The notes beneath the pieces are model-generated. The model was not told the origin of the DNA, searched no databases, and worked only from the letters and a program-made list of their open reading frames with translations. From positions 1-33,254 of the forward strand of contig DXJL01000192.1 of the NCBI GenBank assembly GCA_019057635.1: 33,254 nucleotides of DNA. Reading direction: 5' to 3'. The position numbers and the translations under genes were made by a program. This document shows positions 1 to 1,984 of the stretch, piece after piece. The stretch comes from Candidatus Heimdallarchaeota archaeon (GTDB lineage Archaea > Asgardarchaeota > Heimdallarchaeia > Hodarchaeales > Hodarchaeaceae). The first letter of the stretch is position 1. Every line of letters begins with the position of its first letter.

Positions 1-120
1 TGTTCTTCCTGATTCAGCGACGCGAGCCAGCATTAATGCCGGTCTTACCGCTTCTCCACAGGCGTTTAATGTCTCCGCAGAACTCTCGGCGACAGGAAAT
101 ACACATGACTTTCCTGATTG
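1..120 (-). ncRNA. TnpB-associated omega/reRNA-like scaffold (IS200/IS605/IS607 right-end type), orphan, 3' part beyond the window edge
   Basis: Minus strand reads GTCGCCGAGAGTTCTGCGGAGACATTAAACGCCTGTGGAGAAGCGGTAAGACCGGCATTAATGCTGGCTCGCGTCGCTGAATCAGGAA. This matches, from memory, the ...AGTT...AACGCCTGTGGAGA...GTAAGA...TGAAnCAGGAA pattern at tnpB 3' ends, and translates as VAESSAETLNACGEAVRP, a typical TnpB tail. Hairpins at 71-93 and 27-42; long-range CCTG/CAGG pairing (59-62 with 8-11). Locally GC-rich against an AT-rich background. Confidence 0.7.
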
Positions 121-136
121 ATTCGCAACTTTTCTT

Positions 137-144
137 CTTATAAA
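137..144 (-). promoter_or_regulatory. Putative archaeal TATA box (TTTATAAG) for the omega-RNA-like element
   Basis: TTTATAAG on the minus strand lies about 20-27 nt upstream of the start of the structured region (~116-120), the spacing expected for an archaeal promoter. Confidence 0.4.
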
Positions 145-589
145 CCTACTAAGCCCTGTAATCTAAAACAAATTTGCTTGTTTCCCGTTATTCTAATATC
201 AAGAAGTTACATTGCGCGTCATTTTAGGTATAATCCCATGAGATCGGTTGAACACTCTGTTAATCATGTATTTTAATCTCTACTCCCTTCTCCTAAGATC
301 TCCTGCCTTCTAGTTCTCTTCTTTCTGTAATGTCATCTTGACCTATTTGTCTATAAATGTCCAGATCTGTCAATCTATCCGACAACAATATTTACCACCT
401 GTTTAGAAAAATTCTTGCCCCGATGTCGAGAAGCAAAAACGACTATATATTTTTCATTTATTTCTAGTTTTATTCACTCCTACAAGTGGGAATGAAGTTG
501 AACAAGAAATTAATATTTCAAAAATATTTTACACTAGTTATAACTATCATTATATTTCCTCCCTACTAACTCAGATATTCCCCCTTTCT

Positions 590-1129
590 GTGATTTTCAT
601 GCCTGATACCTCATATTTAGAGTATATTGCTACGATCAGGAAGAATAACGATCATTTTTTTAAACATTCTGAGGATTCTCCTCTAACAACGGAGCAAAAA
701 CAATCATTCGAAGGTTTAACTAATTTTCCTGTTAATGAGAAGCTTAATCTTAGAGTTAAACTTCAAAAGAATAAACATCCCGAAGAAGTAACAATTTTAG
801 CAACCAAAGGGGATGAAAGGACGTATCTCCGATATGGATATTTCACTTTTGAGTTTGAAGGAAAGGATAATCGCTTAACTGTCTTCAAACCCCCAGATGA
901 TGAGTATTTATTTGTCCCGTTTAAAGATAAAACATCTGGTATAGAATCCTATGGTGGGGGCCGCTATGTCGAATTGGAACCGTTAGTTGATGGCTTTTTT
1001 AAGATTGATTTTAATCTAGCGTACTTACCTTACTGTGCCTTTAATGATAGATACAGTTGTACACTTATCCCTCCGGAAAATTTTCTAGCGGTTAGAATTC
1101 CTGCAGGGCAAATGAATTACTCACACTGA
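590..1129 (+). CDS. DUF1684 family protein
   Basis: Motifs SPL...F.GL..FP, LFVPFKDKTSGIESYGGGRY and IDFNLAYLPYCAFNDRYSC..PP.EN are typical of DUF1684. The start may be the ATG at 599. Confidence 0.9.
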   Translation: MIFMPDTSYLEYIATIRKNNDHFFKHSEDSPLTTEQKQSFEGLTNFPVNEKLNLRVKLQKNKHPEEVTILATKGDERTYLRYGYFTFEFEGKDNRLTVFKPPDDEYLFVPFKDKTSGIESYGGGRYVELEPLVDGFFKIDFNLAYLPYCAFNDRYSCTLIPPENFLAVRIPAGQMNYSH

Positions 1130-1185
1130 TGTTGAAAAGAATTCTAGAGATTTTGCTCTAGCATCTTTCCTTCTAGGAAACCCTT

Positions 1186-1398
1186 TCATTTCCCATGAAT
1201 TTGCAGAAAGCCTCGGGCAATTATATTTTCTATTTGATTAGAAATTTCCTTCACAAATTCGAATGGGTTTTGGTTGATGGAAGAATTCTTTTTTGTACAA
1301 TATTGATTTAGATCAGTCCCTTCCTCGTATGTTATTATTCGGTCCAGAAGTTCAAATAGAGTTTCTAGTTTATTGAGCAATTCAGATTTTACTTCCAT
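1186..1398 (-). CDS. Small hypothetical protein (70 aa, helical)
   Basis: ATG-initiated ORF filling an otherwise empty gap, with protein-like composition; no recognisable motif. Confidence 0.45.
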   Translation of the reverse strand: MEVKSELLNKLETLFELLDRIITYEEGTDLNQYCTKKNSSINQNPFEFVKEISNQIENIIARGFLQIHGK

Positions 1399-1549
1399 TA
1401 AACTCGGTTGACCTATGAAGTTTCCTGTTTTTATATCCCAATGTTAGTTTCTCTCACAAACCATTCTCTTAAACAAAATGATTTCTCTTGAAAATGTTCC
1501 TCGGATCTTTTAAAGACTCTTGTGAGTATTAGTATTAATTTCCAAAGAA

Positions 1550-1984
1550 ATGGTGAATAAGATGAATATTATTGCTCATATATTGGTAACTTTTCTGTTT
1601 ATTAAATTGGGTGATTTGACTGGAATCGATATTTTTTGGGCTGCTCTTTTTGGAGTGCTAATTGATTTTGACCATCTCATCAAAGTTCCTCTCTATCTCA
1701 AACAAAATGGATTTAAAATTGTAAGGTATTGGAATTGGAGAACGAGTTTACAAGAACCTGTATCTTATTTATGGATAGTGCCATTAGCTGTGTATTCACG
1801 GACCTGGGTTCCTGTGTTTTTCTTCACAACTCATCTTATACTTGATTATATAATGAGTTATGAAAAACAACCTTTTTATCCATTTTTAGACTTTAAAATT
1901 CCGAAAAGGAGAGTTAAAATTGATGATTTTGCTGGAATATCAACAGTGGTGATTGTAGGATGTATATTGTTGTACCTGGTGTAA
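1550..1984 (+). CDS. YdjM/DUF457-like membrane-bound metal-dependent hydrolase
   Basis: N-terminal His, DFDH, HLILD and PFYPF motifs with hydrophobic helices. Probable start is ATG 1562, after a GGTGA SD-like motif. Confidence 0.75.
   Translation: MVNKMNIIAHILVTFLFIKLGDLTGIDIFWAALFGVLIDFDHLIKVPLYLKQNGFKIVRYWNWRTSLQEPVSYLWIVPLAVYSRTWVPVFFFTTHLILDYIMSYEKQPFYPFLDFKIPKRRVKIDDFAGISTVVIVGCILLYLV

Follow-up and report, generated by a model that had tools for sequence, protein, structure and literature searches.

An omega-RNA-carrying element without tnpB at a contig end of an Asgard archaeon is very probably a mini-transposon derived from a tnpB-only IS607-family element

Minus-strand positions 1 to 394 of the window (the whole 33,254-nt stretch of DNA that was analysed) very probably belong to a non-autonomous mini-transposon that is truncated by the end of the contig, namely a tnpB-only IS607-family element that has lost its tnpB gene through one internal deletion. 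In genome G000 the window corresponds to contig C176, with position 1 being the first base of that contig. The original prediction had described an orphan TnpB-type omega-RNA scaffold within the first 144 nt, to be read either as a stand-alone guide-RNA gene acting in trans or as a non-autonomous IS200/IS605 derivative. The scaffold without a tnpB gene in cis is borne out, and of the two readings the copies of this sequence favour the second, insofar as they show a non-autonomous element derived from a tnpB insertion sequence. The following features, all on the minus strand, were recognised.

Positions 1 to 394, minus strand: left 394 nt of a 466-467-nt gene-less, MITE-like mini-transposon (BLAST on G000, nine-copy alignment, and left-junction mapping).
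Positions 1 to 93, minus strand: 5' portion of the omega-RNA scaffold, covering positions 1-93 of the 167-position model R1 (cmsearch with R1, and protein-level match).
Positions 94 to 136, minus strand: leader with deletion junction, where ~30-35 nt of the tnpB 5'-UTR meet the tnpB tail (alignments with three full-length elements and nine copies).
Positions 137 to 144, minus strand: TATA-like box TTTATAAG of the tnpB promoter-like block (9/9 aligned copies and 3/3 full-length elements).
Positions 145 to 394, minus strand: left-end region, 71-77% identical to tnpB-carrying elements (BLAST of a complete copy and full-length alignment).
Positions 332 to 364, minus strand: subterminal AT(A/G)GAC-type direct repeats with a spacing of about 10 nt (motif positions in the mini-element and in full-length left ends).
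Positions 395 to 399, minus strand: target/TAM-like motif GGTGG (CCACC on the plus strand) adjoining the left end (comparison of 15 left junctions).

The resemblance to tnpB 3' ends that was noticed from the letters is real homology. Window 1-105 (minus strand) is 77% identical to residues 382-416 of a 426-aa TnpB encoded in the same genome on contig C104 (E 1.4e-8), and the tail motif also has its counterpart at the C-terminus of ISDra2 TnpB, whose structure is solved. The scaffold part (window 1-93, minus strand) is derived from the last tnpB codons, i.e., residues ~382-416 of the C104 TnpB, and contains a CCUGUGGAG...GAAUCAGGAA core that resembles RAGATH-18. In the minus-strand translation of window 1-198, which reads ...VANQSGKSCVFPVAESSAETLNACGEAVRPALMLARVAESGRT, a TAG precedes the first V by 23 codons, and neither a Zn finger nor a RuvC-III motif was found in that frame, confirming the earlier description. 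The TATA-like box TTTATAAG is present at window 137-144 as proposed, and its distance to the start of the tnpB-tail homology (window 93) is 43 nt instead of the approximately 25 nt given before. Diversity among copies is low in the 30-nt bin that contains the box (0.048). The box may have promoter activity.

Window 1-144 was found again in G000 at 13 other places with 92-98% identity and at nine more with weaker matches; 13 further occurrences of a 144-nt sequence at such identity are far beyond chance. When the query was extended against G000, the repeat proved to span window 1 to ~394 rather than 144, with host DNA from 395. The stretch from 120 to 600, where decayed tnpB sequence had been envisaged as the mark of a mere IS scar, consists of the left end of the element and then of this host DNA. 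The contig start cuts the element, and therefore ~73-74 nt are missing from the right end of the window copy, which lies beyond the assembled sequence together with its guide. The guide had been placed just left of position 1; in complete copies, however, about 74 nt of additional scaffold intervene past what would be window position 1. No contig bridging position 1 was present in the Logan contigs of four runs, in which the repeat occurs as pieces of 36-162 nt, and in run X1 the summed depth of the repeat was ~20x that of the unique flank, a value that is not a copy number. The repeat element accounts for the break of the contig at this point. Contig C192 gave the best overlap as a candidate for the missing right half, but at 98% instead of 100% identity, and the two were not paired. 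Next to the element, a DUF1684 gene (window 599-1129, plus strand, E 1.4e-40) starts ~200 nt from the left end, and the predicted transcription of the element is directed away from it. Within the left end, a near-palindrome ATCTCATG(A/G)GAT is located at positions ~155-170 of the mini-element, counted from its left end (window ~225-240); it is conserved between the mini-element and the full-length elements, and few stretches of this region vary less (diversity 0.05).

Using a complete copy as query, eight full-length copies were identified in G000, on contigs C75 (two copies), C82, C111, C137, C150, C153, and C210, with 90-93% identity. Another nine pieces are found at contig ends, comprising right parts (C12, C65, C88, C192, and C207) and left parts (C106, C142, C178, and C176, i.e., the window), and internal fragments occur on C30, C162, and C194. 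The deletion junction is identical in 9/9 aligned copies, and this common junction indicates that the element multiplied after the loss of tnpB. Among the 41 genomes searched, the full 466-467-nt form is restricted to G000 and G002, the latter representing a sister species of the same genus. In 16 mini-element copies, the left end has a diversity of 0.109 and the omega-RNA part one of 0.056, with only 0.007 in the last 23 nt, and the sequence 3' of the right end differs in every copy. Other tnpB-less families exist in the same genome, one represented by C125:25954-26360, C51:1887-2189, and C105:20752-20908, and another by C174:1354-1784. These share the omega-RNA core (scaffolds of 157 nt and 184 nt) and have other deletion junctions, which indicates that tnpB loss recurred. 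An unrelated repeat of ~150 nt (C150:24524-24680, corresponding to L031:701-860) has more than 25 matches with 79-92% identity in G002, G020, G018, G004, and G005 and another one in G000 (C65:773-888); it is probably another mini-element.

Five insertions in G000 were compared, together with their flanks, with the genome of sister species G002. The site was precisely empty in three cases (C150, C111, and C82); for C210 the flanks are adjacent in G002 with a diverged junction, and for C137 only one flank was present. At the three empty sites the flanks join directly, and no target duplication was found. The empty-site joints fix the element ends as T(C/A)AAT...CAGAACGG to within 1 nt, the C150 site being one T off the strict ...ACGG boundary. 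A right end of ...ACGG (or, written longer, ...AACGG) is seen in 37/39 aligned ends, and a repeat scan of a full copy revealed no terminal inverted repeats. The left flank has the consensus RGGGG in the 15 junctions compared, with A or G at -5 in 15/15, G at -4 in 13/15, at -3 in 13/15, at -2 in 15/15, and at -1 in 13/15; the GGTGG of the window copy is one position off this consensus. In the empty sites of C111, C150, and C82, the RGGGG motif directly precedes the sequence that follows the right end when the site is occupied, and TAM and target of a TnpB guide are expected in just this order. For the window copy itself, window 397-1800 had no match in G002, and in the reciprocal comparison of G002 copies with G000 the flanks were on different contigs. 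The C82 copy directly abuts an ~86-nt fragment (C82:48097-48182) that matches an IS607-type unit on C54 at its 3' end with 86% identity; this fragment is also present at the empty site of G002.

These copies and sites bear directly on the stand-alone guide-RNA gene, according to which the host would have domesticated and kept the locus so as to direct a TnpB or a TldR-like or Fanzor-like protein encoded elsewhere to one constant target, for instance a virus or a promoter. Such a gene would agree with the lack of tnpB in cis at the window copy, with a conserved TATA-like box upstream of the scaffold, and with an omega-RNA part that is about half as diverse among copies as the left end. It is, however, highly improbable, given that eight full copies and about nine contig-end pieces carry transposon ends of both kinds, that the sequence after the right end is different in every copy and leaves no constant guide, that three of five tested sites are precisely empty in G002, and that the window flank has no counterpart there; in addition, the cognate TnpBs (see below) retain acidic residues at the three RuvC positions. 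What had been proposed as a stand-alone trans-acting gene is thus a multi-copy sequence with both ends that is polymorphic between species and in which each copy would have a different, flank-derived guide. The opposite view, that the locus is an inert scar, the immobile and untranscribed leftover of a single decayed tnpB element, could draw on the departure of the flanking GGTGG from the consensus and on the right end of the window copy being out of view. It is decidedly improbable in the light of the single deletion junction in all copies, and hence amplification after tnpB loss, the difference in insertion sites between the two species, and the almost invariant last 23 nt of the right end.

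The source of the mini-transposon can be traced to tnpB-carrying elements in the same genome. Three elements of ~1.63 kb (C104:14243-15871, C139:3638-5266, and C152:3625-5259) resemble the mini-element at both ends, with tnpB lying in between. The TnpB ORF is open in C104 (426 aa) and C139 (435 aa) and broken by four stops in C152, and N-terminal tnpB fragments are located at the contig ends of C210 and C58. The C104 TnpB contains the Pfam domains HTH_OrfB_IS605, OrfB_IS605, and Cas12f1-like TNB, and aligns with ISDra2 TnpB from end to end (E 1e-50), with the tail ...TLNA.G..VRPAS in both and with acidic residues at the positions of the RuvC D, E, and D of ISDra2 TnpB. The search for copies and cognate tnpB genes that had been suggested, including a look at the RuvC residues, was successful, with cognate genes on C104, C139, and C152 and acidic RuvC positions in the C104 protein. 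Alignment of the mini-element with the three full-length elements reveals one internal deletion. To its left, the left end, a block ...TAGGTTTATAAG..., and ~30-35 nt after that block were kept; to its right, the tnpB tail from about residue 382 (the last ~44 codons), the 3' sequence, and the right end were kept. In C104 the promoter-like block is situated 67 nt upstream of the tnpB ATG. From the same alignment it follows that the TATA-like box did not arise as a new promoter but belongs to the promoter-like block of tnpB: what had been called the scaffold's own promoter is the tnpB promoter region of full-length elements, retained by the deletion. Identity of the nearest tnpB-carrying elements to the mini-element is no higher than 84-86% over the omega-RNA part and 71-77% over the left end, which implies that the direct parent is absent from the assembly. 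The closest tnpB relatives are in Heimdallarchaeota, Hodarchaeota, and Promethearchaeota, in line with the Asgard host that had been named from the letters.

For the omega-RNA, a covariance model (R1; 167 positions, 45 pairs) was built from 39 aligned right ends of G000 and five relatives. Covariance-model searches had been proposed at the outset; those against Rfam gave no match, neither in the whole window at gathering thresholds nor in window 1-700 at E up to 10, whereas R1 matched window 1-93 (minus strand) with 103.8 bits (E 2.5e-26) over model positions 1-93, the match being cut at its 3' side. R1 also matched at the tnpB 3' end in 35 of 61 loci with relatives of the C104 TnpB, the five best matches being places that were used to build the model; among the matching loci are some from Thor-, Hermod-, and Promethearchaeota and from several bacterial phyla, with TnpBs of no more than 43-50% identity. 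In the elements on C104, C139, and C152 the omega-RNA extends from the tnpB 3' end through the right end of the element, and the window sequence is homologous to it.

A multi-hairpin RNA had been described for window 1-144. The fold of this single sequence lends no support to it (z = -0.36; 71 of 200 shuffles fold as well), but covariation across relatives does. In the R1 alignment, which is fitted to the model and favours its structure, 89.8% of the cells pair, compared with 74.7 ± 0.7% in shuffles and 32-50% with slid partners, and 37 of 45 pairs are changed on both sides (34-37 over both structures considered), a number reached by 0/500 shuffles. In the alternative structure with a RAGATH-type helix, 92.7% of the cells pair. 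The local helices that distinguish the two, CGCCU/AGGCG (the first RNAalifold helix) and the RAGATH-type CCUG/CAGG, are both nearly invariant. A conserved, covarying RNA structure is thus present at the tnpB 3' ends of this clade. When three full-length or complete loci were searched against Rfam, RAGATH-18 (RF03064) scored 25.3 bits (L016) and 24.0 bits (L019), i.e., below the gathering score of 44.9, although the core letters align. These sub-threshold alignments cover CCUGUGGAG...GAUGAAUCAGGAA, the motifs that had been picked out from the letters of the window.

The evidence points to an IS607-type rather than an IS200/IS605 element, so that the family label of the original prediction has to be replaced. 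Y1 TnpA (PF01797) had no match in G000 (91.6% complete) or in G002 (93%); Y1 matches occur in two of 22 genomes of the genus, one with a stop and the other partial. Bacterial relatives of the TnpB clade have an ORF of ~190 aa that stops where tnpB begins. Of 392 upstream ORFs listed, 36 were chosen and scanned; a Resolvase domain (PF00239) was found in the directly upstream ORF in 22/24 bacterial and 0/12 archaeal loci, and Y1 in none of the 36. The AT(A/G)GAC-type motifs, which lie 30-60 nt from the left end at ~10-nt spacing in both mini-element and full-length elements, are candidate transposase-binding motifs. According to PMC6188088, IS607 elements have neither inverted repeats nor target duplications, insert at (G)GG, end in GG, and carry short, directly repeated subterminal motifs. 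An IS607-family element with TGGG as both target and TAM and with a scaffold ending in ...UCGG is reported in 10.1101/2023.11.20.567912, and RAGATH-18 RNAs have been linked to IS607 TnpBs with AGGAG or GAGGG TAMs (PMC11061315). It is the agreement on target, ends, motifs, TAM, RNA core, and partners of the TnpB clade that assigns the element to IS607.

The competing affiliation would be a PATE-like element of the IS200/IS605 type, moved as single-stranded DNA by a Y1 (HUH) TnpA. Several observations are shared with such elements: the cognate TnpB is related to that of ISDra2, an IS200/IS605 element (E 1e-50); terminal inverted repeats and target duplications are missing and insertion takes place at a fixed motif, as in IS200/IS605; and omega-RNA-bearing PATEs are described for this family (10.1101/2023.03.14.532601). 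Nevertheless, it is considered quite unlikely: PF01797 is missing from G000 and G002, and the matches in two of 22 genus genomes are both incomplete; a serine recombinase precedes tnpB in 22/24 bacterial relatives and Y1 in 0/36 scanned ORFs; and the GG of the flank together with the GG of the right end fits the 2-bp crossover of serine recombinases (as described in PMC6188088).

Serine recombinases of the IS607 type are present in G000 in two units. The first (C54:5792-7584, minus strand; L164) consists of an open 195-aa tnpA_S (HTH_17 and Resolvase) that overlaps an open 402-aa tnpB, and has a tnpB-only relative on C163 with 81% identity. In the second (C56:27184-29342, minus strand; L163), a tnpA_S with an in-frame TAG at codon 4 is followed by a TnpB-like ORF of 532 aa. 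The C56 TnpA_S is 38-51% (~50%) identical to the bacterial TnpA partners of the clade, the C54 TnpA_S 24-31%; no member of the C56 clade was found in G002, and members with an open frame are present in G013 and G016. The ends of the C54 and C56 units have no BLAST similarity to those of the mini-element, only word matches of 9-15 nt (E 0.4-7). Serine tnpA remnants were not found in the long left end, where tblastn with eight TnpA_S proteins matched C54 and C56 only. The search of G000 (91.6% complete) revealed no intact transposase cognate to the mini-element, and none of the Asgard copies seen has a tnpA in cis.

For the mini-transposon, the following mechanism is proposed. Transcription would start ~25 nt downstream of the TATA-like box (window ~112-116), and a transcript running through the scaffold into the flank would yield, for each copy, an omega-RNA with its own right flank as guide. 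The scaffold of the mini-element is assumed to be compatible with the TnpBs of C104 and C139, whose genes are the likely source of nuclease in trans; these TnpBs would load the RNAs of the mini-elements. By analogy, the complex may cut the RGGGG-adjacent empty site left after excision, and recombinational repair would then restore the element. Excision and integration would be carried out by a serine-recombinase TnpA supplied in trans. The scheme follows the homing/retention model shown for bacterial TnpB elements (10.1101/2023.03.14.532601). A bolder variant regards the mini-elements as hyperparasites of TnpB that persist or spread mainly via RNA-guided cleavage followed by repair, or by titrating the nuclease, instead of via transposase hopping. 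Behind it stand the 24 R1 scaffold matches in G000, of which three lie beside full-length tnpB, against two cognate tnpB genes that are intact, a ratio of about ten to one, and the positions that differ between two species, in neither of which an intact cognate transposase was found. This variant is deemed unlikely.

With the mini-transposon as explanation, an apparent orphan guide-RNA gene becomes an ordinary, well-delimited mobile element. For annotation this means that I) where an Asgard genome has tnpB-tail-like sequence but no accompanying tnpB, a mini-transposon is the simplest explanation, and II) this TnpB clade belongs in IS607 and not in IS200/IS605. The element also represents a natural case of a tnpB promoter-like block fused directly to an omega-RNA, in which many differently guided copies face only two intact nuclease genes and share an RGGGG target motif. 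The TnpB, the scaffold, and the TAM are defined parts for studying the use of omega-RNAs in trans in an archaeal system.

Gene-less elements that carry an omega-RNA are a kind already in print; a description of this Asgard element was not found in a limited literature search. ISDra2 belongs to the IS200/IS605 family with a Y1 TnpA, unlike the element here, and its TAM differs from the RGGGG-type TAM here. The TnpB of ISDra2 (8bf8, 8exa, 8h1j) can be aligned with the cognate TnpB over its whole length, and the alignment takes in the C-terminal ...TLNA.G..VRPAS, which overlaps the RNA start. The PATE-like omega-RNA elements described for Geobacillus stearothermophilus (Meers et al., 10.1101/2023.03.14.532601) are likewise gene-less, multi-copy, and equipped with two ends, and their omega-RNA must be used in trans by TnpB of other IS copies, as here; according to the discussion of that work, PATE elements often encode omega-RNAs that require such use. 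The Geobacillus elements are bacterial and of the IS200/IS605 type with Y1 TnpA, whereas the present one is from an Asgard archaeon and of the IS607 type by target, ends, and TnpB partners, and, unlike the Geobacillus elements as described there, keeps a tnpB promoter-like block fused to the RNA.

The RAGATH-18-derived reRNAs of IS607 TnpBs (Cell Res 2024, PMC11061315) have the CCUGUGGAG...GAUGAAnCAGGAA core in common with the element here, and are likewise placed at the 3' end of IS607-type tnpB with a G-rich TAM (AGGAG or GAGGG). Only 64% of RAGATH-18 RNAs are reported there to adjoin a TnpB. In comparison with RAGATH-18, the scaffold here is longer (157-184 nt), contains an extra variable hairpin, and reaches Rfam scores of 24-25 bits versus the 44.9 of the gathering score. 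The TnpA_S/TnpB/omega-RNA system of CboIStron (Zedaveinyte et al., 10.1101/2023.11.20.567912) uses a GG core and a TGGG TAM versus RGGGG here, and its scaffold ends in ...UCGG versus ...ACGG here. The donor joint is scarless in both and restores the TAM together with the target, and CboIStron mini-elements without both genes are described as being mobilised in trans. The element here differs from CboIStron in that no group I intron was detected (Rfam, window 1-700), in that none of the Asgard copies seen has tnpA in cis, and in that it is a natural mini-element which has been amplified to more than 13 copies.
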